From a virus, in the IMG/VR virus record IMGVR_UViG_3300002168_000001, positions 1-35,625 of that record: DNA of 35,625 nucleotides; one strand, given 5' to 3'. The notes beneath the pieces were generated by a model. It did no database searches and was not told where the DNA came from. It saw only the letters and a list, made by a program, of their open reading frames with translations. Positions 1,741 through 35,625 of this stretch are shown piece by piece. Within the stretch, counting starts at the first letter, position 1. Each line of letters begins with the position of its first letter. Both the position numbers and the translations under genes were made by a program.

Positions 1741-2481
1741 ATGGAAATTAGAACTTTAAGAGCGGACGAAATAGAATGCCGCGTGCAACAAGTAAAAAAA
1801 ACAGGATGTGTATTACTAATATACAAAGATGCGCGTGTAGATATGCGAATCCTTGATGAGGTGTACGGTGCTGAAAATTGGCAAAGAACACACGAGGTTA
1901 TAAACGGAAATCTATTTTGCAATGTAGAAATATGGTGCAGCGAGAAAAAACAATGGGTAAAAAAACAGGACGTAGGTACTGAAAGTAATACAGAAAAACA
2001 AAAAGGCGAAGCATCAGACAGCTTTAAGCGTGCGTGTTTTAATGTTGGAATCGGTCGTGAGCTTTATTCTGCACCTTTTACATGGATTAATCTTGCAGAA
2101 AATGAAATAACTGTTTATAAAGATAAAAACGGAAAAGATGCTTATAGATTAAATTTCGGCATATCATTTTCGGTAAAAGAAATCGAGTACGACGAAAACA
2201 GAAACATATCAAAATTGACTATTATAGACAATAAAAAAGTAGAGCGGTTTAAGTTCAATAAAAATGCTTTGCAGGATATGAAAAAAGCGAAAGCAGGACT
2301 AATACCAAACAATAGTAACGACAAAGAAATTGAACTCGCAAAAAAAGCACTTGAAGCTTGTCAGTCTCTTGCTAATTTAGAAAAAATATATTTAGGATTA
2401 GAGCCACATTTGAAAATCGCTCTTAAACAGTTCACTAAAAATTTAAAAACTAAACTTGAAACTAAACAAAATGGAGTTTAA
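1741..2481 (+). CDS. Rad52/Sak-family single-strand annealing protein
   Basis: The N-terminal pattern ADEIECRVQQ...YKDARVDMRILDEVYGAENWQ and the motif ASDSFKRACFNVGIGRELY are typical of Rad52-type phage annealases. An exonuclease gene follows. Confidence 0.75.
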   Translation: MEIRTLRADEIECRVQQVKKTGCVLLIYKDARVDMRILDEVYGAENWQRTHEVINGNLFCNVEIWCSEKKQWVKKQDVGTESNTEKQKGEASDSFKRACFNVGIGRELYSAPFTWINLAENEITVYKDKNGKDAYRLNFGISFSVKEIEYDENRNISKLTIIDNKKVERFKFNKNALQDMKKAKAGLIPNNSNDKEIELAKKALEACQSLANLEKIYLGLEPHLKIALKQFTKNLKTKLETKQNGV

Positions 2482-3130
2482 AATAAGATGCAGCGCAATC
2501 GGTCAAATAATGACCAATGCGCGAACTAAAGGACAGCTAAGTAAAACAACACAATCTTATTGCGAATCGTGGCTAAAAGAAAAGATTTACGGTAAGAGAA
2601 AAGAATTTACAAGTAAATATACCGACAAAGGTATTTTAGAAGAGGATGCAAACATAGAATTTGCAAACAAAATGCTTGGAATTACTTCGATAAAAAATGA
2701 AGAGTATTTTGAGAATGATTTTCTAACAGGAACGCCCGATATTATTCTTGAAAATGAAATTATCGACATTAAAAGCTCGTGGGATTGCTTTACTTTTCCT
2801 ATCTTTGATACAGAAATCAATAAAGATTATTTTTATCAATTACAAGGGTACATGGAGCTGACAGGGAAGCGAAAAGCAAGACTCGTGTATGTGCTTGGGG
2901 ATACGCCCGTTTCTATCCTACACAGCGAGGCAAACAAACTCAAATACTCTCTTGGATATGATTTTGAAGAAGCATTAGAAATAGTAAAAAAGAAACACGA
3001 TTACAGCCACGTTTTAGACGATTTAAGGATAAAAGTTTTTGAGGTGGTATATGATGCCGAAATTATAGAAAAAATCAAACAGAGGGTAAAAGAATGCGAA
3101 ATTTACACTAATAACTTAATAACATTATGA
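2471..3130 (+). CDS. YqaJ/lambda-Exo-like PD-(D/E)XK recombination exonuclease
   Basis: The motif GTPDIILENEIIDIKSSWD fits PD...E.K. The N-terminus has CSAIGQIM. The ATG at 2471 is preferred over the TTG at 2456. Confidence 0.7.
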   Translation: MEFKIRCSAIGQIMTNARTKGQLSKTTQSYCESWLKEKIYGKRKEFTSKYTDKGILEEDANIEFANKMLGITSIKNEEYFENDFLTGTPDIILENEIIDIKSSWDCFTFPIFDTEINKDYFYQLQGYMELTGKRKARLVYVLGDTPVSILHSEANKLKYSLGYDFEEALEIVKKKHDYSHVLDDLRIKVFEVVYDAEIIEKIKQRVKECEIYTNNLITL

Positions 3131-8873: not shown

Positions 8874-9287
8874 ATGAAAGCAAAAGTGTTTAATCTTGAA
8901 CAATTAAAAGATACGTTTAATAAAATTGCAAAAGCCGATTTATCCAAAGGATTTGTTATTGAATGGAAACGATTCCAGAAAGTTAGAACAAACGATCAAA
9001 ACGCATTATATTGGATGTGGCTAACTTGTTTGGAGCAAGAAACAGGACAGGAAAAAGACAGCTTACACGATTACTTTAGAGAAAAATATCTACAAGTTAC
9101 ATACGAAAAAGTATTCGATTCCGAAAGAAAAATATTACAATCCACCACGAAATTAGATACCGTTGCAATGAGAAACTATTTAGATAAAATACAAGTATTT
9201 GCGGCTACGGAATTAGCGGTTACACTTCCCGACCCCGAAGACAGATATTTTGAGGAATTTTTATCACAATACGAAAGATTTAGATAA
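8874..9287 (+). CDS. NinB/Orf-family recombination mediator-like protein
   Basis: RTNDQNALYWMWLTCLE parallels lambda NinB RSLDQNRKLWACLGDVS. QSTTKLDTVAMRNYLDKIQVFA parallels GQSTSRMRVGEFAELLELIQAF. Confidence 0.55.
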   Translation: MKAKVFNLEQLKDTFNKIAKADLSKGFVIEWKRFQKVRTNDQNALYWMWLTCLEQETGQEKDSLHDYFREKYLQVTYEKVFDSERKILQSTTKLDTVAMRNYLDKIQVFAATELAVTLPDPEDRYFEEFLSQYERFR

Positions 9288-9651: not shown

Positions 9652-10176
9652 ATGATAACAAAAGAGCAAATAATTGACATAGCAAGAGATGAACTTACAC
9701 CGATAGGATGGCATGAAGAACACGCTAAATACATTGACGGACTTGATGCCTTTGCAGAAAGGCTATTAAAATTATGCGACTGTAAAGATTTTAAAATAAA
9801 AGGAAATATGAGCGAAAAAGCAGAACACAGACAAGTATGTGATTATATAAGGACTCAATACCCGAATGCAATATTTAATACAGATGCGAGCGGTGTTAAA
9901 TTGACAACAGGTCAAGCGGTGCAAATGAAAAAATTAAGGTCTGGTAGAGGGTTTCCTGATATTGTTGTCTATGAGCCGCGTAATGGATATTATGGGCTTT
10001 TTATCGAGATGAAAAAAACGGGCGAGATTTTGTTTAAAAAGAATGGCGAGCCTAAAACAGAACACATTAAAGAACAAATTGAAATGTGCGAAATGTTAAT
10101 GAGCAGGAGGTATTATGCTATGATATGCTTGGGATTCGAGCATGCAAAAAAAATAATTGATTGGTATATGAAATAA
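9652..10176 (+). CDS. VRR-NUC domain nuclease (PD-(D/E)XK) with an N-terminal extension
   Basis: GRGFPDIVVY...GLFIEMKKTGE fits the PD...E.K motif. The segment EHIKEQIEMCEMLMSRRYYAMICLGFEHAKKIIDWY is typical of a VRR-NUC C-terminus. Confidence 0.65.
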   Translation: MITKEQIIDIARDELTPIGWHEEHAKYIDGLDAFAERLLKLCDCKDFKIKGNMSEKAEHRQVCDYIRTQYPNAIFNTDASGVKLTTGQAVQMKKLRSGRGFPDIVVYEPRNGYYGLFIEMKKTGEILFKKNGEPKTEHIKEQIEMCEMLMSRRYYAMICLGFEHAKKIIDWYMK

Positions 10177-14697: not shown

Positions 14698-15939
14698 ATG
14701 AGCGTTCTAAATAGGATAACAAGATTTTTTGGCAAAGACGCAACAATGGAAGTTTACGACTCGCAAACTTTCGGCAATATCGATAACGCATTAAAATTGA
14801 CAGACGAAAATTGTTTCGATTTGGCAATTACGGTACCTGAATTGTTTTTCCCTGTAGATTTTTTTGCGGACAGAATATCAAAACTCGATTACTCAATAGT
14901 TGACAACAACGGCAAGGTATTAGATAATTATACAAAAAGATTAAAGAATCTAAACCCTTTGTATTCGTTCAAAGATTTAGTGTACAAGTATGTTTTTTCG
15001 CTATATAGCTATGGGAATGCAATCACATACATTCACACTTCTGATTCGTTTGCAAGAAACACGTTTGATTCTATAACTAGACTCGATGTATTGACACCTT
15101 CTTTAACTGAAATAAAAGAATTTAACACGATTAATGAGCTTTTTATTTCTGATTTAAACGAAGCGATACAAGAAGTAAGGTATTACAACAACGCACAAAG
15201 ATATAAGGTTATAAAAAAAGAAAATGTAAACGTGTGCGGCGTTGGGTATAAAAAGCAAGTAGATTCTCTTATATTAGACAAATCAATGTTATTTATAGCG
15301 GAAAAAGCTATAAATATATTACTTTCTGTTTATTCCGCACGGTTAAACATTTACAAGAATAACGGAATGGCTGGTATTCTTACAAAAAAAACAGTTCCAG
15401 CAAGTTCAGATATTGCAAGTATAGGAATCAACGGTAACAATCGAGAAGATATAGTGAAAGATATAAACTCGAAATATGGAATAGTCGGACGGAAAAACTT
15501 ATGGGGAATTTCTGGCGTGCCTGTAGAATTTATAAATACACTCGCTTCTATTCGTGAATTAATGCCACTTGAAGAAACTCTCGAATTGTCGATAAAAATA
15601 GCGAGCATATTCCAAATACCGCCACAACTAGTGCCAAGAAAAGATAATAGCACATTTGATAATCAAGCGAGTGCAGAGCGTGGAGTATGGTCTAATGCTT
15701 TGATTCCAGCACTTCAAACGGTAGAGGATAATTTAACGAGAATTCTTAAATTACCAATTGGAACAAAATTAAAAGGTGATTTGAGCAATGTAGAAGCGTT
15801 GCAAGAAAATGAATCAGAAAAGGAAGATTTTGTAACAAAAAAACTGGCAAATCTCGAAAAACTGAAAGCATTAAGTCCAGAATCAAAAGAAATTGAAATC
15901 GAAATACAGAAAATTATAAAAGATTATGGAACAAAATAA
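14698..15939 (+). CDS. Portal protein
   Basis: 413 aa. It lies between the terminase and the prohead protease, in the HK97-like order. Confidence 0.65.
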   Translation: MSVLNRITRFFGKDATMEVYDSQTFGNIDNALKLTDENCFDLAITVPELFFPVDFFADRISKLDYSIVDNNGKVLDNYTKRLKNLNPLYSFKDLVYKYVFSLYSYGNAITYIHTSDSFARNTFDSITRLDVLTPSLTEIKEFNTINELFISDLNEAIQEVRYYNNAQRYKVIKKENVNVCGVGYKKQVDSLILDKSMLFIAEKAINILLSVYSARLNIYKNNGMAGILTKKTVPASSDIASIGINGNNREDIVKDINSKYGIVGRKNLWGISGVPVEFINTLASIRELMPLEETLELSIKIASIFQIPPQLVPRKDNSTFDNQASAERGVWSNALIPALQTVEDNLTRILKLPIGTKLKGDLSNVEALQENESEKEDFVTKKLANLEKLKALSPESKEIEIEIQKIIKDYGTK

Positions 15940-29563: not shown

Positions 29564-30052
29564 ATGGCACAATTAAAAGATACAACGGTTACAGGCAATT
29601 TGACAGTTTCAGGAACAGTTAACGGTAGAGATATAGCAGCTGATGGAGCGAAGTTGGATCAAATAGGAGGGCATATAACTTCTAATTTTGCAGGCAAAAT
29701 AGCAAAAACATTAAATGTAAACACTCTTAACGCAGAGGTTACACTATTCACTGTACCGAGCGGAAAAATGTGCAAATGTGGAAACATGGCAGATTCGACA
29801 TGTAAGATTTATATTTTTGGAACAAAAACGAGTATGAGCGAAGATGCTGTTGTTGATGTTACTTTTAATAATTTCGTAGGGACAGCAAGAACGAGAACAT
29901 TTACTTTATCCACGTTAGGTGGAGACCCTTACGTTTTTATTTGTGATTTGGTAGACCAAAAAATTGGTCCTGGTGACGTTAAGGTTAAGGTAACCACAGC
30001 AGGAACGGGAGCGAATGGTAATGTAATAATAACAACAGACGCAGTTTGGTAA
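29564..30052 (+). CDS. Tail fibre/spike-associated protein
   Basis: The N-terminus MAQLKDTTVTGNLTVSGTVNGRDIAADGAKLD is typical of phage fibre N-termini. Confidence 0.5.
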   Translation: MAQLKDTTVTGNLTVSGTVNGRDIAADGAKLDQIGGHITSNFAGKIAKTLNVNTLNAEVTLFTVPSGKMCKCGNMADSTCKIYIFGTKTSMSEDAVVDVTFNNFVGTARTRTFTLSTLGGDPYVFICDLVDQKIGPGDVKVKVTTAGTGANGNVIITTDAVW

Positions 30053-30124
30053 ATGGCAACAGTAATATTAATATCAGTAATAATAGCCGTACAAGTTACG
30101 GCGGTAATATTGATTAGAAGATGA
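30053..30124 (+). CDS. 23-aa single transmembrane peptide (lysis-cassette accessory or holin partner candidate)
   Basis: The sequence is MATVILISVIIAVQVTAVILIRR. Its start abuts the upstream stop, and its own stop overlaps the next ATG as ATGA. Confidence 0.4.
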   Translation: MATVILISVIIAVQVTAVILIRR

Positions 30125-30423
30125 GCGAGGGTCAAAAAGATTTAGTTTTAGAATTATTCGGACTATTACGGTCTGATATATCGGACTTGCACAAAAAAGT
30201 AGATGAAATTAAAGAGCAAACTACAAAGACAAACGGACGTGTTACATCGCTTGAAAAGTCTAAAATTACGGCAGATTTGTTGTGCTCCGAAATGAAACAG
30301 CACATAAACGAATCTATTACACGAGAGTCAAAACAGTATCGAATAGGAGCATTTTTATTAAACGCAAGTGCAACCGCTGCGGTGTTGGGAGCAATTTACG
30401 GGCTTATTAAAATAGTACTATGA
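30121..30423 (+). CDS. Holin-like membrane protein (N-terminal coiled coil, C-terminal transmembrane helix)
   Basis: 100 aa. The C-terminal IGAFLLNASATAAVLGAIYGLIKIVL is hydrophobic. It is coupled to the downstream hydrolase-like gene. Confidence 0.5.
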   Translation: MSEGQKDLVLELFGLLRSDISDLHKKVDEIKEQTTKTNGRVTSLEKSKITADLLCSEMKQHINESITRESKQYRIGAFLLNASATAAVLGAIYGLIKIVL

Positions 30424-30803
30424 AACTAAAACTAATTAGACTCATTTTCACTGAAGAATATACAGAAGGTCAATTATACATTGATGATGAATACTTTTGC
30501 GACACGATTGAAGACGCATTGCGAAAAGTAAAGATTAAACACATAACGTGTATTGACGCTGGTGTGTATAAAGTATCTCTCACATACTCATCTGTTTTTC
30601 GTAGAGTATTGCCGCTTTTACACGATGTGCCGAAATTCTCGGGCATACGCATTCACAGAGGGAATACAGCGGAACATTCAAGCGGGTGCATAATTGTAGG
30701 TAAAAAATTACGAGACGGATTTGTTGGAAATTCAACCGAAACAGAAAAACTATTATTAAAAAAACTCGAAGGTATTAATAATATAGAAATTGAAATAATA
30801 TGA
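30420..30803 (+). CDS. Putative cell-wall hydrolase with a YkuD/L,D-transpeptidase-like catalytic motif (DUF5675-like)
   Basis: IRIHRGNTAEHSSGCIIVG resembles the H...S.GC catalytic signature. It sits in the lysis position after the holin-like gene. Confidence 0.4.
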   Translation: MKLKLIRLIFTEEYTEGQLYIDDEYFCDTIEDALRKVKIKHITCIDAGVYKVSLTYSSVFRRVLPLLHDVPKFSGIRIHRGNTAEHSSGCIIVGKKLRDGFVGNSTETEKLLLKKLEGINNIEIEII

Positions 30804-31681
30804 TAATAGATTCGCACACACACGCAGGATTATCGTATAGAGACTATCCTAATAAAATTTTTGGAGTATTCTCAAAGTTTTTGCTTGGAAAAAAAAAGCG
30901 TGTGAAATTCGCTGCAAAATTCCTATCCGCTATAATTCCGACCGACAAAGACTTTCTCGAACGATACGCACGTCTTTTAGAATATTCAGAAAAAAGCACA
31001 GCGGAACGAATAGAGGATGCATTAACCTATTGCGATAAACTAAACGCACTTTCTATTAATCTGCAATACATGGGCGCAGGAGACACTCAAAGAACATACG
31101 ATGAACAAATGGAAATGCTCGTATTAATGCGAGAAAAATATAAAGATAGAATCAATATATTCATGATGTTGGAGCCGCAAGACCCGAACATTATTAGACA
31201 CGTAATAAAGTATGAGAGATTTTGCAAGGGGTGGAAATATTACCCACCCGTTTCGGGAACTATCAATAACGGAATGATAAGGCATATTTTAGAAAAACAC
31301 CCGAAGCCGATAATCATCCACACAACGAATACAAGTCCAATTTACAACAAGTTTTTCAAAAAAAAGGTTGCGCAAGATTTCGCACACCCGAAATACTGCA
31401 TTCCATTAATTGAGAAATACCCGAACGTGCCGTTTATATTTGCGCATTTAGGCGGTGAAAATTGGCAAAACGAAGTAATAACTTTATGCAAAAAATATCC
31501 GAATGTTTACACAGACATATCATTCACATTTTCAAAAGACCACGATACATTAAGTAAGATATTTCACAGGATACCCGAAAAAATATTATGGGGTACGGAC
31601 AACCACATGACCGACCCCGAACCGTTCTTGAAAGTTCCATATTTTGAAGCCATGCAAAAAAATAACTCGAAATTATTTTGA
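30800..31681 (+). CDS. Metal-dependent amidohydrolase (TIM-barrel, Amidohydrolase_2-like)
   Basis: IIDSHTHAG at the N-terminus, then IIIHT, FAHLGG and WGTDNHM, matching the amidohydrolase metal-ligand pattern. Confidence 0.65.
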   Translation: MIIDSHTHAGLSYRDYPNKIFGVFSKFLLGKKKRVKFAAKFLSAIIPTDKDFLERYARLLEYSEKSTAERIEDALTYCDKLNALSINLQYMGAGDTQRTYDEQMEMLVLMREKYKDRINIFMMLEPQDPNIIRHVIKYERFCKGWKYYPPVSGTINNGMIRHILEKHPKPIIIHTTNTSPIYNKFFKKKVAQDFAHPKYCIPLIEKYPNVPFIFAHLGGENWQNEVITLCKKYPNVYTDISFTFSKDHDTLSKIFHRIPEKILWGTDNHMTDPEPFLKVPYFEAMQKNNSKLF

Positions 31682-31743
31682 TTTAAATATTTTATACCTT
31701 ATATTTACAGCCTACGCACTTTTATAGGATTATTTTTTAGTTT

Positions 31744-31790
31744 ACCCCCGATTTTGTCGCCCGATAAAACGGGGGTTTTTAACTTTTTTT
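31744..31790 (+). terminator. Strong rho-independent terminator ending the late operon
   Basis: The hairpin ACCCCCG-a-TTTT-g-TCG cc CGA-t-AAAA-CGGGGGT (31744..31776) is followed by a T-run. Confidence 0.85.
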
Positions 31791-31877
31791 AACTTTTTTT
31801 CACTTTTTTCAACATTTTTTCATTAAAACTATTGACAAATCAAATTAATTATATTATATTTGTACTATAATAATTAA
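31786..31877 (+). promoter_or_regulatory. 92-bp perfect repeat, copy 1: phased T-tracts plus a strong Bacteroidota-type promoter (TTGACA-N20-TAtaTTTG)
   Basis: Identical to 32391..32482. ttgaca at 31832..31837 and tatatttg at 31855..31862. T-tracts recur about every 10 bp across 31781..31822. Confidence 0.75.
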
Positions 31878-31900
31878 CAAACAACTAAAAAATAGAAATT

Positions 31901-32044
31901 ATGAAAACAACAGAATCGAAAAATGGAAAGATGAAAACTCTAACGATTGAGCAAAAAGAACAAGCATTAAGAGATATTAATTTTTTCGTTGGTGGATTAA
32001 CAGATGAAGCGATTGAATATTACTATAATAAGTTGATATCGTAA
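31901..32044 (+). CDS. Small early hypothetical protein (47 aa)
   Basis: It is preceded by the conserved leader aactaaaaaatagaaattATGaaaa. The product is MKTTESKNGKMKTLTIEQKEQALRDINFFVGGLTDEAIEYYYNKLIS. Confidence 0.45.
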   Translation: MKTTESKNGKMKTLTIEQKEQALRDINFFVGGLTDEAIEYYYNKLIS

Positions 32045-32101
32045 AACGATAATATCATGGAAACACCATTTACACAGTCAAACAATTAAAAATTAGAAAT
32101 T

Positions 32102-32359
32102 ATGAAAACAGAATTAGAAAAATACACCAAAAAATTAAAAAGATTAAAAGGGAAGGAGTTGGTGTTGAAAATGAAAGAAATCCTTCCCAAAGGGAAATAC
32201 ATTGGTTATCCAGACTTTATTTTCATAAATGAAAAGGAAAAGGCGGTAAGGGTTAGTGAAGCCTCGCCAAGATGGGCAAATAATGCCAAAAAGGTGTTTA
32301 AAGAGTTGGGGTATAATCTCAATTTAGATGTCCGAAAAAAAGGAAGTATAATGCTATGA
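32102..32359 (+). CDS. Small basic early hypothetical protein
   Basis: 85-aa ORF with a leader-like upstream sequence (aattaaaaattagaaattATGaaaa). Confidence 0.6.
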   Translation: MKTELEKYTKKLKRLKGKELVLKMKEILPKGKYIGYPDFIFINEKEKAVRVSEASPRWANNAKKVFKELGYNLNLDVRKKGSIML

Positions 32360-32390
32360 GCAAACAGCAGCTTCCAGTAAGAGTTGATGG

Positions 32391-32482
32391 TTTTTAACTT
32401 TTTTTCACTTTTTTCAACATTTTTTCATTAAAACTATTGACAAATCAAATTAATTATATTATATTTGTACTATAATAATTAA
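32391..32482 (+). promoter_or_regulatory. 92-bp perfect repeat, copy 2 (the same promoter)
   Basis: Identical to 31786..31877. ttgaca at 32437..32442 and tatatttg at 32460..32467. Confidence 0.75.
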
Positions 32483-32506
32483 ACAAAAACTAAAAAATAA
32501 AACAAA

Positions 32507-32791
32507 ATGGAAACAACAAATTTAAAAAACAAAATCCAAAAAGAAGTAGAAATAAACATGATTGACTACTTAAGCCATGCAAAAACTGCAATTGCATTTA
32601 TCAACGAAGTTGTTAGCCCGCTTACTTCGGTAAGCGAAGAACAGGAGCAGGCAATAGGCGACATTCTCTGCCTTACTCAACAAGAGTGGGAGGAGGCAGA
32701 ATGCGATGCAGAGGGTCCAAATAAAGAGCAAGATGCTGCTCTTGATAAGATTATTGAAGATGCAGCTGCTGCCATTTCTGAACTTTTTTAA
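32507..32791 (+). CDS. Small, strongly acidic early protein
   Basis: 94 aa with 15 Glu, 6 Asp, 6 Lys and no Arg. It is the first gene after the second promoter copy. The C-terminal helix is DAALDKIIEDAAAAISELF. Confidence 0.65.
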   Translation: METTNLKNKIQKEVEINMIDYLSHAKTAIAFINEVVSPLTSVSEEQEQAIGDILCLTQQEWEEAECDAEGPNKEQDAALDKIIEDAAAAISELF

Positions 32792-32834
32792 AAAATCAAA
32801 ACCTATATTAATAAAAAAACTAAAAAATAATACT

Positions 32835-33257
32835 ATGAAAACAATGGAAAAAATTAATGCTAAATGGGTAGATGAAAACAACAACACATGGACTTCTTCC
32901 TTATACACTAAGGAAGAGGCAATTGAAATGAGTAAATCTCTTATCAATTGTCGGGATTGTTCGGATTGTCGGTATTGTCGAGATTGTCATGATTGTCATG
33001 ATTGTCGGTATTGTCGGTATTGTTCGGATTGCCGGAATTGTTCGGATTGTCGGAATTGCTATAATTGTGAGGGATGTCGGTATTGTTGGGGTTATCAGGG
33101 ATGCCGTGATTGCTATAATTGTGAGGGATGTCGTGATTGTAATGGGTGCATGGAGTGTAAGGATTGTGGTTGCTGTGAATATTGTGAGGGATGCCGTGAT
33201 TGCTATAATTGTGAGGGATGCCGTGATTGCTATAATTGTGAGGGATGCTGCTCTTGA
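32835..33257 (+). CDS. Cys-triplet-repeat protein: a 38-aa N-terminal domain followed by 102 aa with Cys at every third residue
   Basis: MKTMEKINAKWVDENNNTWTSSLYTKEEAIEMSKSLIN is followed by CRDCSDCRYCRDCHDCHDC...CEGCRDCYNCEGCCS. The leader motif lies upstream. The ATG at 32835 is preferred over 32706, which would overlap the previous gene. Confidence 0.65.
   Translation: MKTMEKINAKWVDENNNTWTSSLYTKEEAIEMSKSLINCRDCSDCRYCRDCHDCHDCRYCRYCSDCRNCSDCRNCYNCEGCRYCWGYQGCRDCYNCEGCRDCNGCMECKDCGCCEYCEGCRDCYNCEGCRDCYNCEGCCS
32949..33254. repeat. 9-bp-periodic coding tandem repeat (TGY-NNN-NNN, 34 units), including two perfect 27-bp units
   Basis: 33 of 34 consecutive codon triplets begin with TGT or TGC. 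The perfect tandem tgtgagggatgccgtgattgctataat occurs at 33183..33209 and 33210..33236. Confidence 0.9.
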
Positions 33258-33338
33258 TAAGATTATTGAAGATGCAGCAACCTCTATTGCCGAACTTTTT
33301 AAAAAAAAAAATTAAACAAAAACTAAAAAATAGAAATT

Positions 33339-33890
33339 ATGAAAAATTTAAAAATCACAATCGAAAATTTACAACAACTTAATCCATGCGAATCGGGATA
33401 CGAGTTCGCCCAATCTAAAAATTCTTTAATAGAAGCATGGGAAACGTGTGAAAGAGGCGATTTGATGCTTTGGTTTGCAAGTAAACTTGAGTGTCCAGTG
33501 GAACTATTGACCCTAGCAAAGGGGAAATGTGCTGAAACAGTTATTCATTTGATGAAAGACGAAAGAAGTCGCAAGGCGGTAAAAGCTGCCATTGATTTTG
33601 GTAATGGCGTTGCTTCACGTGAAGAATTAGATGCGGCTTCTGATGCTGCTCATGTTGCTGCTAAGGATGCTTTTGATTATGCTTTTGCAGCTTATGCTGC
33701 AGCCGCTTCGAATGCTGCTTATGCTGCTTATGCTGCTGCGAATGCTGCTTATGCAGCTGCTGCTTATGCTGCTTCTTATGCTTCTTCTGCTTCTGCTGCT
33801 GCTGCTGATGCTGCGAAAAAAGCAAACCAGCTTCAAACGGCTAACATCTGCAGAGAAGTGCTTACTGATTTTATAAAATCAAAACTATGA
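33339..33890 (+). CDS. Ala/Tyr-repeat protein: a Cys-containing N-terminal domain followed by a low-complexity alanine-rich helical repeat
   Basis: The N-terminus LNPCESGYEFAQ...AWETCERGDLMLWFASKL is followed by DAASDAAHVAAKDAFDYAFAAYAAAASNAAYAAYAAANAAYAAAAYAASYASSASAAAADAA. An identical 25-nt leader lies upstream. Confidence 0.65.
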   Translation: MKNLKITIENLQQLNPCESGYEFAQSKNSLIEAWETCERGDLMLWFASKLECPVELLTLAKGKCAETVIHLMKDERSRKAVKAAIDFGNGVASREELDAASDAAHVAAKDAFDYAFAAYAAAASNAAYAAYAAANAAYAAAAYAASYASSASAAAADAAKKANQLQTANICREVLTDFIKSKL

Positions 33891-33916
33891 AAAAATAATA
33901 TTAAAAAATAGAAATT

Positions 33917-34189
33917 ATGAAAAAAACACATCAAGACTATTTTAAAGCGGTCGAGTTCGCAAAAGAAACAACCGACAAAGTGATTGAAAAGCTCGAACAA
34001 ATAGCAATCGAGAATAAAATAGAAGCGAAAATCACAACAGAATACATTGCGGAACGAAACGCATTCGTAATTGAAGTTAGCAATATGACTAACTACCATA
34101 TTAACGAAGTCGCAAAAGTAATGCTTGGGAAACGAGCGCAATCGACTTCGATGAAATCAGGCTATATTGTAATTGATATAAACGAGTAA
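33917..34189 (+). CDS. Small early hypothetical protein
   Basis: 90-aa ORF with the conserved leader upstream. Confidence 0.6.
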   Translation: MKKTHQDYFKAVEFAKETTDKVIEKLEQIAIENKIEAKITTEYIAERNAFVIEVSNMTNYHINEVAKVMLGKRAQSTSMKSGYIVIDINE

Positions 34190-34191
34190 TT

Positions 34192-34398
34192 ATGTACGGA
34201 TTCACAACTGTAGAGGAAGACTTAGCTAAATATATGCAAGAGCTTGAAGAAAGAGAAAAAGAAGACATCGAATATTACAGCGAAGAAATCGAATGTGCTG
34301 AATGCGGAGAAACACACGCACGTGGCGACATGAACGAAATCTGGTTACATTGGATTTGCGATAAGTGTAAAAATGAGCATTTCCCGAGAAAGAAATAA
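34192..34398 (+). CDS. Small acidic zinc-ribbon protein
   Basis: 68 aa with an acidic N-terminal half, then CAEC...CDKC. Confidence 0.6.
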   Translation: MYGFTTVEEDLAKYMQELEEREKEDIEYYSEEIECAECGETHARGDMNEIWLHWICDKCKNEHFPRKK

Positions 34399-34472
34399 CT
34401 TCCTTGTATGTACACTATAATAATTAACAAACTAAAAATGAGCAATATAATAACAACAGAAACGCAAATAAA

Positions 34473-34883
34473 ATGAAAGACATAAACAAAATAATCAGAA
34501 TAGTAGAAAAACACGCAGGTTTCTCAATCAGAAACAAAGGGCGTAAACGTGAACTTGTTGAATACAGACAAATAGCGCAAGAACTCTGCATAAATTACAC
34601 AAATTGCAGCCTTAAGCAAATAGGTTACGCAACAAATCAAGACCATTCAACGGTAATATACGCACGTAAGCAAGTAGAGATATTAATGTGCAACAAAGAA
34701 TTTGAGCGCAAATATAAAGAAATTGAAAAAATCGTAATCAAAGAGTTAAACACGAACGCAGAAAAACGCACTCAAATGATTCACGACCTCGAACAGCGGA
34801 TTTGGGGAGCAGAACACCCCGAACATTTATCCCAAATGAAATCACGTCTCGGGCATTTACTTTACGCAGAATTACAGGATTAA
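34473..34883 (+). CDS. Stand-alone DnaA domain IV-like (Bac_DnaA_C) helix-turn-helix protein
   Basis: GRKRELVEYRQIAQELCINYTNCSLKQIGYATNQDHSTVIYARKQVE aligns with E. coli DnaA [48 protein letters not shown]. No AAA+ domain is present. Confidence 0.8.
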   Translation: MKDINKIIRIVEKHAGFSIRNKGRKRELVEYRQIAQELCINYTNCSLKQIGYATNQDHSTVIYARKQVEILMCNKEFERKYKEIEKIVIKELNTNAEKRTQMIHDLEQRIWGAEHPEHLSQMKSRLGHLLYAELQD

Positions 34884-34925
34884 TATGAAAACAGAAATCG
34901 TAAATAATAAACACAGTAAAAGGAT

Positions 34926-35267
34926 ATGAAAAACAAAATTATCAAAATTGCAGATGACCTCCGAAACGGAGTGATAGAAACAGAAACCGCACGAAGCCTT
35001 TTATTGGGTTTATTTAGTGTTAGTGGCTGCTTATTGGTCAATGCTAAAAAAGGAGATTATTTAAAATGTACAAAGGTTTATTCTCAATCAAAAAAATATA
35101 CAGTTGGTAAAATGTACCAAATAATAAATATTGAAATGATTGATGTTATTCATTTATGGAAAAAAGAACCACACATAGTAATAAGAGATGACAATAATAA
35201 ATTAACAAGAATAAATCAAATAAGTGGAATAAGTTTCACTGAGTTTGATGTTTTAAGTTGCCACTAA
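34926..35267 (+). CDS. Hypothetical protein
   Basis: 113-aa ORF. No motif recognised. Confidence 0.55.
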   Translation: MKNKIIKIADDLRNGVIETETARSLLLGLFSVSGCLLVNAKKGDYLKCTKVYSQSKKYTVGKMYQIINIEMIDVIHLWKKEPHIVIRDDNNKLTRINQISGISFTEFDVLSCH

Positions 35268-35278
35268 AGAATGGTTTT

Positions 35279-35625
35279 ATGAAATATAGTGGATTTGAAA
35301 AAGAGGAGCATTTCGATAGAATTAGCTTTTATAACGGTGATTGTATGGATTTATTAAAACAAACACCTGATAAATACTACGACCTTGCTTTGGTTGACCC
35401 GCCTTATGGAATTGGGATTAGCTCCAACCCTGTAAGACAACGGCACGAAAAAAAAGACTGGGACAATGCGATACCTACACACGAATATTTTGAGCAACTA
35501 TTTAGGGTAAGCAAAAATCAAATAATTTGGGGTGGTAATTATTTCCCATTAAAACCAACGCAATGCTTTTATATTTGGGATAAAAAACAACCGCACGACT
35601 TTAGCCTTGCAATGTGTGAAATGGC
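35279..35625 (+). CDS. DNA methyltransferase, beta-class N6A/N4C type: N-terminal part, continuing at 98..401 after the circular junction
   Basis: The ATG at 35279 is followed by FYNGDCMDLL and LVDPPYGIG (motif IV). It is in frame with 84..401 through the 97-bp overlap. The reconstructed gene is 651 nt (216 aa). Confidence 0.85.
   Translation, partial: MKYSGFEKEEHFDRISFYNGDCMDLLKQTPDKYYDLALVDPPYGIGISSNPVRQRHEKKDWDNAIPTHEYFEQLFRVSKNQIIWGGNYFPLKPTQCFYIWDKKQPHDFSLAMCEM
35529..35625. repeat. Terminal overlap copy B, identical to 1..97
   Basis: 97/97 identity by direct comparison. Confidence 0.95.

Follow-up and report, generated by a model that had tools for sequence, protein, structure and literature searches.

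In an uncultured phage from biogas-fermenter metagenomes, the end of a gene for a small acidic protein occurs twice: once where that gene terminates, and again behind the neighbouring gene, which encodes a protein rich in cysteine (Cys) repeats and is read in a different frame. The question raised by this locus is whether the second copy supplies an optional C-terminus to the Cys-repeat protein or is the trace of a past rearrangement. The phage is record IMGVR_UViG_3300002168_000001 of IMG/VR, and the window is the whole stretch of 35,625 nucleotides (nt) that was analysed. An earlier note, made from the sequence alone, had described the duplication and offered two readings of it. In the first, illegitimate recombination pasted the neighbour's 3' end onto the repeat array and truncated it; in the second, the tail is reached by +1 frameshifting or by a change in repeat length. 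We find that the second copy is very probably a 72-bp pseudogene fragment, a recombination scar in the variable early region of the phage, and that the locus, as judged from related sequences, would be a product of ordinary phage mosaicism. The tail is probably not translated within the Cys-repeat protein.

Two copies of one gene end

The 35-nt sequence GATGCTGCTCTTGATAAGATTATTGAAGATGCAGC has exactly two occurrences in the window, at 32732-32766 (copy 1) and 33244-33278 (copy 2), both on the + strand. With up to three mismatches allowed, a search of the window returned no other site, and none of 100 dinucleotide-preserving shuffles contained a match at that tolerance, which confirms the identity first reported from inspection. 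Ungapped similarity between the copies extends over 64 nt at 88% identity (32732-32795 versus 33244-33307); in the alignment it starts precisely at 33244, with nothing shared upstream of that position.

Copy 1 codes for DAALDKIIEDAA near the C-terminus of the acidic protein, as translation of its open reading frame (ORF; 32507-32791, + strand, 94 amino acids) bears out. Copy 2 opens a remnant at 33244-33315 on the + strand, made up of the 35-nt block 33244-33278 and the 22 nt of 33279-33300, which reads, in the +1 frame relative to the Cys-repeat gene, as DAALDKIIEDAATSIAELFKKKN followed by a stop. The Cys-repeat gene itself (32835-33257, + strand, 140 amino acids with 35 Cys) runs from an ATG at 32835 to a TGA at 33255-33257 with a TAA directly after it, and both stops lie within copy 2; the frame and the stop codon are thus as the earlier note had them. 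Its microhomology is likewise present: GATGC at 33244-33248 (+ strand) is common to the 27-bp repeat unit of the Cys gene (tgtgagGGATGCcgt) and to the acidic gene (caaGATGCtgc), and marks the breakpoint between the repeat unit and the acidic-gene tail. All the descriptive statements of that note hold.

Copy 1 belongs to a longer unit of gene tail and intergenic leader (32732-32834, + strand), which comprises the 35-nt block 32732-32766, a lineage-specific 22-nt end encoding AAISELF with the stop codon, and the spacer up to the ATG of the Cys gene. Over 99 of its 103 nt this unit aligns with the tail and spacer of two related loci (L008 and L009; numbers of this form denote loci and contigs used for comparison), and it also aligns with those of L021, L022 and L014, while its 22-nt end carries at least four differences from each relative.

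The acidic protein (21 acidic and 6 basic residues; pI 4.05) has 24 family members at 55-100% identity in a search of 5.8 billion protein clusters. The C-terminus of the family is strongly conserved, with the consensus DKIIEDAAxSIAELF, and the translation of copy 2 (DAATSIAELF) is nearer to it than is the acidic protein of the window itself (DAAAAISELF). An AlphaFold model of the acidic protein (pLDDT 90.8) has helices at residues 2-22, 28-36, 44-63 and 73-91, and the shared module makes up most of the last of them. On the strength of this model, the module is predicted to be a structural piece of a compact four-helix fold and not a portable or autonomous appendage. A structure search with the acidic protein gave no match in the PDB at E < 2, and a search of IMG/VR found no relative of it. 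Nothing above threshold was returned by a Pfam search with the acidic protein, the Cys-repeat protein and the product of the next gene downstream (an Ala-rich protein, here called AAYAA), and a PHROGs search with the same three matched only families of unknown function. The sole relative of the acidic protein in the genome collection, at 43% identity, lies at 2193-2477 of L028, an 8-kb contig binned as a metagenome-assembled genome of Bacteroidota; as a weak hint, it suggests that the host phylum is probably Bacteroidota.

Native neighbourhood of the second copy

The comparison of homologous loci that the earlier note had recommended was made with 22 related loci fetched through the acidic gene. 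In eight loci (L007, L008, L009, L013, L014, L021, L023 and L024) the AAYAA gene comes next after the acidic gene, across a spacer of about 40-110 nt, and Cys arrays are absent from all 22, whichever frame is read. The flanks of the Cys gene in the window, namely the promoter, the acidic gene, both tail-plus-spacer units, the AAYAA gene and the gene after it, all match relatives at 78-94% nucleotide identity. Since the Cys segment (32835-33243) has no nucleotide match in the fetched relative loci and all its flanks do, the Cys gene appears to be a lineage-specific intruder between two normally adjacent genes.

Copy 2 lies on the other side of this intruder, and it has the features of an acidic-gene end in its proper place. 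The stretch 33244-33300 corresponds in alignment to the final 57 nt of 11 acidic-family genes. Its distal 22 nt (33279-33300), which have 7 differences from copy 1, match the end of an intact acidic gene in L026 and L027 at every position, L026 being a relative from the same biogas-fermenter study. Downstream of copy 2, the conserved leader aaacaaaaactaaaaaatagaaatt (33316-33338, + strand) precedes the AAYAA gene (33339-33890, + strand, 183 amino acids; 90% nucleotide identity to L023 and 86% to L021), and this spacer has its homologue between the acidic and AAYAA genes of L021, L023 and L024. Both 32732-32834 and 33244-33338 thus align with one unit in the relatives, a gene tail with the spacer up to the next start codon. 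The native TAA of the remnant was lost within a T/A run, and its frame is extended by KKKN and a stop. The 22-nt identity and the matching spacer together argue that copy 2 is the true 3' end of an acidic gene, still joined to its original downstream neighbour, and that the 5' three-quarters of that gene were replaced by the Cys gene.

These observations correct the first of the two earlier readings in its direction. Illegitimate recombination at GATGC and truncation of the Cys gene stand, but the tail was not just copied from the neighbour's 3' end, because its distal 22 nt match L026 and L027 and not the neighbour, and because its position before the AAYAA gene is ancestral; the gene end was there first. 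The Cys gene would then be a newcomer beside a pre-existing gene end, or else a deletion would have fused the two.

The Cys gene is truncated at the GATGC microhomology. Its product consists of an N-terminal W-x-D-E-N-N-N-x-W domain followed by a CxxCxx array, and residues 4-90 match positions 1-87 of the 276 positions of the phrog_15341 profile (E 9.8e-26); the N-terminal domain and the array of that family are present and the C-terminal region is missing. The array is encoded by tandem DNA repeats with periods of 9 and 27 bp (32947-33248, + strand). The last two complete 27-bp units (33183-33209 and 33210-33236) are identical, the third stops after 12 nt, and copy 2 starts within this incomplete unit. 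Only 2 residues follow the last array cysteine, the shortest tail in the family, compared with 12-219 in all 58 homologues in which the array could be located. Among 59 homologues, 33 carry a C-terminal module of about 75 residues (NPQRYTT..IGSR..VVCGCF), 6 an HCRAGW-type module and 9 other modules, including LPD28 and PF18909; the remaining 11 have short tails of 12-40 residues. The closest homologues of the Cys protein all bear the NPQRYTT-type domain of about 75 amino acids, and a search for it throughout the window showed that it is encoded nowhere. The 2-residue tail, set against the longer tails of the homologues and the absence of the domain from the window, indicates that the joint cut the Cys gene inside its array.

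The Cys-array family as a whole combines one N-terminal domain with a CxxCxx array of highly variable length and at least five C-terminal modules (NPQRYTT-type, HCRAGW-type, LPD28 (PF18843), PF18909 and others). Two near-identical contigs illustrate the variability: the gene at 3914-4384 of L004 (156 amino acids) and that at 3914-4276 of L005 (120 amino acids) differ in their arrays by 108 nt, or 36 codons, in frame. The Cys array may serve as a recombination-prone linker. IMG/VR holds only distant Cys-array genes. The context of P0025, the closest Cys homologue (L029), was considered as a donor and rejected: it has a different leader, of Shine-Dalgarno type, and no acidic gene.

Other chimeras occur in the same block of genes in the relatives. 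At 684-1175 of L023, the first 13 codons of the acidic gene (MKNLKNKIKMEVE) are fused in frame to an N-terminally shortened AAYAA gene, and a second, full AAYAA gene follows. At 777-1007 of L010, and also in L011 and L012, the acidic gene is cut after about residue 68 and has acquired a new end of 8 residues, with a gene for a DEAD/SNF2-type helicase 7 nt past the truncated gene. In L013, the acidic tail plus promoter element is found twice (1-135 and 392-526), 391 nt apart and flanking the acidic gene body; the contig begins within the first tail copy. These sister chimeras support the view of the block as a recombination playground.

A single joint does not account for the whole of copy 2. 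The two copies in the window show no mismatch in the first 35 nt and 7 in the following 22 (Fisher p = 0.0006), and at three polymorphic sites of the 35-mer both share the haplotype C-C-A, a combination present in 0 of 11 relatives. The abrupt change from 0/35 to 7/22 mismatches calls for one or more additional homologous exchanges or conversion tracts. Copy 2 thus appears to be a mosaic itself, 35 nt being like copy 1 and the rest like L026, and at least two events would be needed.

The history that we propose has the following steps. Illegitimate recombination mediated by GATGC would have joined the tandem array of a foreign Cys gene to codon D76 of the acidic gene, out of frame, and this joint would have deleted the C-terminal part of the Cys protein and provided a stop codon three codons on. 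How the Cys ORF came to lie between two acidic tails can be pictured in two ways. An unequal exchange between related co-infecting genomes could have put it between the downstream leader of the acidic gene and the tail of a second template, duplicating the tail-plus-leader unit of about 100 bp. Alternatively, a microhomology-mediated deletion could have taken place in an ancestor with one acidic gene, a full Cys gene and a second acidic gene in a row, in which case concerted evolution between the acidic paralogues would account for the shared haplotype; the duplication of tail and promoter in L013 indicates that duplications of the kind needed here exist in the group. The data do not separate these two histories, as no donor-type relative was recovered. 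The contig of L020 (SRR13001967) ends 14 nt beyond its acidic gene, and these 14 nt are most similar to the spacer that follows copy 1. A second event, a homologous exchange or a gene-conversion tract, would have its boundary at 32766/33278. Likely catalysts are encoded by the phage itself: the Erf-type annealing recombinase, the exonuclease and the Orf mediator. From the repeat, frames, synteny, truncation and mosaic pattern observed at the locus, we infer this order of events and these enzymes.

Four points weigh against interpreting copy 2 as a scar. The presumed donor arrangement, a full Cys gene beside an acidic gene or flanked by two acidic paralogues, occurs in no recovered relative. 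The junction is carried by one genotype only, so that selection on the remnant is not measurable. The +1 frame of the remnant is still open and encodes a peptide close to the consensus, as would also be expected of a scar formed very recently. Finally, synonymous sites of the 35-mer vary unusually little within the family, which could mean constraint at the nucleotide level and not mere recency. On the other side, the locus combines 3'-end homology without the rest of the gene, ancestral downstream synteny, a microhomology joint that ignores frame and a truncated upstream gene, all of which a recombination scar should have.

Alternative explanations of the tail

The conservation of synonymous sites in the 35-mer bears on the alternative that survives best, in which the remnant was kept for a functional DNA or RNA (a hairpin, a weak terminator or the translation-initiation context of the AAYAA gene) and the scar is selected instead of neutral. 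The central 24 nt of the 35-mer, TCTTGATAAGATTATTGAAGATGC, are almost invariant in 13 sequences, third codon positions included; the 35-mer helix is pairable in 95% of cells; and relatives fold into a GC stem and then ACUUUUUU at the gene end, with z between -2 and -4.7. Surviving recombinants also keep the AAYAA leader intact. Support from covariation is lacking, however, with 0 pairs showing compensatory double changes and shuffles scoring equally, and the minimum-free-energy structures differ among relatives. No terminator was called at either tail, no Rfam family matched at the remnant, and peptide conservation combined with frequent recombination would explain the invariance equally well. 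We regard a nucleotide-level role as a minor and unlikely possibility, which bears on the retention of the remnant and is compatible with its origin as a scar.

With a programmed +1 frameshift at UCU UGA U (33252-33258), some of the Cys protein molecules would end in DKIIEDAATSIAELFKKKN, an optional C-terminal helix, and the product of the shift would contain the junction peptide ...CYNCEGCCS-DKIIEDAATSIAELFK. Several features favour such a shift: at the UGA it would land precisely in the frame of the tail, a purine run (GAGGGA) lies 6 nt upstream, and the RNA around the site folds more stably than its shuffled versions (dG -19.7, z -3.6). A stop codon in the A site is also a feature of frameshift sites of the prfB type. 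The sites of prfB and of Listeria phage PSA are, however, of the CUU-U or CCC-U type, whereas here re-pairing of the P-site codon from UCU to CUU would be poor, CUU not matching the anticodon of a Ser tRNA; to our knowledge, UCU-UGA-U is no known +1 slippery site. The hairpin holds the stop codon in its 5' arm, and hence is no downstream stimulator. Escherichia coli prfB (CUU-UGA-C) and the capsid and tail genes of PSA (CCC-UGA) resemble the locus in having a stop at which a +1 shift opens a longer C-terminus, but the present site has neither a P-site codon competent for re-pairing, nor a correctly spaced stimulator, nor conservation in two frames.

Comparative evidence points the same way. 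A Cys array joined to the tail, in any frame, was found neither among the relatives nor among the proteins of the 5.8 billion clusters. A database search with an artificial in-frame fusion of array and tail returned ordinary Cys-family proteins, none of them with the tail, and an exact look-up in the cluster collection found neither the 140-residue Cys product nor the 108-residue product of the +1 frame. Synteny already accounts for the tail as a gene remnant, and the tail would be the last helix of a predicted four-helix fold, unlikely to stand alone. A low-efficiency shift at 33252-33258, perhaps aided by the hairpin at 33240-33284, could in principle yield a minor Cys-array isoform with an acidic amphipathic C-terminal helix, which would fit a family with many interchangeable C-terminal modules after the array; we consider it very improbable, as we do the programmed shift. 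If true, it would represent a new type of +1 site and an optional C-terminal module, but nothing that we found supports it. In a milder version of the idea, the array DNA may act as a recombination landing pad for the swapping of C-terminal domains, and the locus would be an out-of-frame product caught in the act.

An error of assembly or sequencing, the true genome having an in-frame tail or no second copy, is conceivable, since tandem repeats and a duplicated 35 nt could be a hazard in short-read assembly. Two contigs assembled from separate runs (ERZ925054 from SRR3184675 and ERZ925076 from SRR3184649) are, however, 100% identical over 29672-35625, and 6 contigs are recorded as carrying the acidic protein. 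The junction is free of homopolymers, and the 35-nt repeat is far below the k127 k-mer size of the contig records, so that it would not collapse. The assembly or indel error that the earlier note had allowed for, one that would restore a single frame, is therefore not borne out, and we hold such an error to be extremely improbable.

Phase variation, in which a change of repeat number would move the tail in and out of frame, can be given practically no weight. The locus shares with contingency loci and simple-sequence-repeat phase variation a tandem repeat within an ORF and a copy number that varies in a family member (L004 versus L005). In such loci, however, the unit is not a multiple of three or a homopolymer lies in the ORF, whereas here all array periods (9 and 27 bp) are multiples of three, so that gain or loss of a unit keeps the frame, as the in-frame difference between L004 and L005 illustrates. 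Between 32835 and 33257 there is no homopolymer or dinucleotide tract beyond an A6 and a G3, the independent assemblies are identical and the frame is never switched. With array periods divisible by three, no slippery site and no junction in relatives or database, the second of the two original readings is left unsupported in both its forms.

The +1 frame is open over 327 nt (32989-33315, + strand), and the public gene calls on the source contigs include it as a 108-residue ORF rich in Ile and Val that ends with the tail (L001 4483-4809). That this is a real overprinted gene is extremely improbable, even though an automatic caller picked it. It matches no family in Pfam or PHROGs, and its internal ATG is without the conserved leader seen before real genes in this region; conservation across 59 homologues is in the Cys frame. 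Open alternative frames are a by-product of triplet-periodic arrays and also occur over the arrays of L004 and L005; in the window, the ORF is open because the array leaves frames open and the remnant prolongs this one. The practical effect is that automatic annotation calls a fictitious protein of 108 amino acids and misses the Cys-repeat gene.

Two further candidates were rejected. Read-through or recoding of the TGA fails at the in-frame TAA directly next to it. A template-variable pair of a diversity-generating retroelement does not fit the mismatches between the copies (T/A, G/A, T/C, G/T, C/T, T/G and T/C), which are not confined to template adenines; no reverse-transcriptase family was found among the proteins scanned, which did not comprise every ORF, or among the precomputed Pfam hits on L001.

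Genome setting and known mosaic joints

The first 97 nt of the window are identical to its last 97 nt (1-97 and 35529-35625), and a public contig spans the end into the start, which indicates that the biogas-fermenter metagenomes yielded a whole phage genome, circularly permuted and about 35.5 kb long. The large genes all share the + strand and follow the order terminase, portal, capsid, tape measure, lysis, the small early genes that contain the locus, and then a DnaA_C-like gene, a methyltransferase and a primase-helicase. PHROG matches identify an Erf-like single-strand annealing protein (1741-2481, + strand), an exonuclease (2456-3130, + strand), a NinB/Orf mediator (8874-9287) and a resolvase-like gene of the Holliday-junction kind (9652-10176). 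An Rfam match to SNORD36 in the region of the portal gene (15078-15157; 31.8 bits against a gathering score of 30, E 0.22) is almost certainly spurious in an AT-rich phage.

Regulatory DNA is also repeated around the small early genes. A 98-nt repeat at 96% identity is present at 31800-31897 and 32405-32502, with a weaker third copy at 34393-34432; it holds a strong promoter-like site, TTGACA-17-TATATT (and also TAtaTTTG), and lies upstream of a gene for 47 amino acids and of the acidic gene. In relatives, too, the element is found upstream of the acidic gene, at 84-94% identity. Given the repeated promoter element, the pair of genes for 47 and 85 amino acids also looks like a cassette bracketed by regulatory DNA. 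At least five of the small early genes begin behind a conserved leader of about 25 nt, AACTAAAAAATAGAAATTATGAAAA (31869-31907, 32070-32108, 32474-32512, 33307-33345 and 33885-33923). It is likely to be a shared translation-initiation region, and would offer a ready short homology for the exchange of cassettes.

The AAYAA protein consists of a conserved N-terminal part (NPCESGY..AWETCERGD) and a long repeat rich in Ala, Tyr and Asp, and matches phrog_18326, a family whose function is unknown. The DNA of the repeat has blastn matches of 73-78% to hypothetical genes of Salmonella phage 9NA, Caulobacter phage Cr30 and others, which probably arise through low complexity. When 31800-34500 was compared with 50,697 phage records by distant blastn, low-complexity matches to this Ala-rich repeat were the only ones obtained.

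The scar is a clean, datable example of the shuffling of small early genes in an uncultured phage group, and as such of modest importance. In one place it brings together a microhomology joint, an identity tract of about 35 bp, near the requirement of annealing recombinases, and several sister chimeras. In tailed phages, illegitimate recombination, or relaxed homologous recombination by phage Rad52-like recombinases, is known to yield mosaic junctions and gene remnants (Martinsohn et al., 2008, PMC2327257; De Paepe et al., 2014, PMC3945230). Efficient recombination between diverged sequences has been demonstrated for Erf/Exo pairs, and a lower limit of about 30 bp is quoted for Red-beta (PMC3945230; see also PMC2327257), so that a 35-bp tract is of the expected size. 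The locus agrees with the joints described in these studies in its microhomology of a few bases, its disregard of frame and an exchange tract bounded by short perfect identity, here of 35 bp. It agrees with them, too, in its position in a variable early or accessory region of a genome that encodes an Erf-like single-strand annealing protein, an exonuclease and Orf. It differs in that the mechanism is proposed from sequence comparison and no parental genome was recovered, in that the joint lies inside a coding tandem repeat, and in that a duplicated tail-plus-leader unit was left behind instead of a clean module boundary. With these particulars, the locus is a further instance of the well-known mosaic joints and gene remnants of phages.

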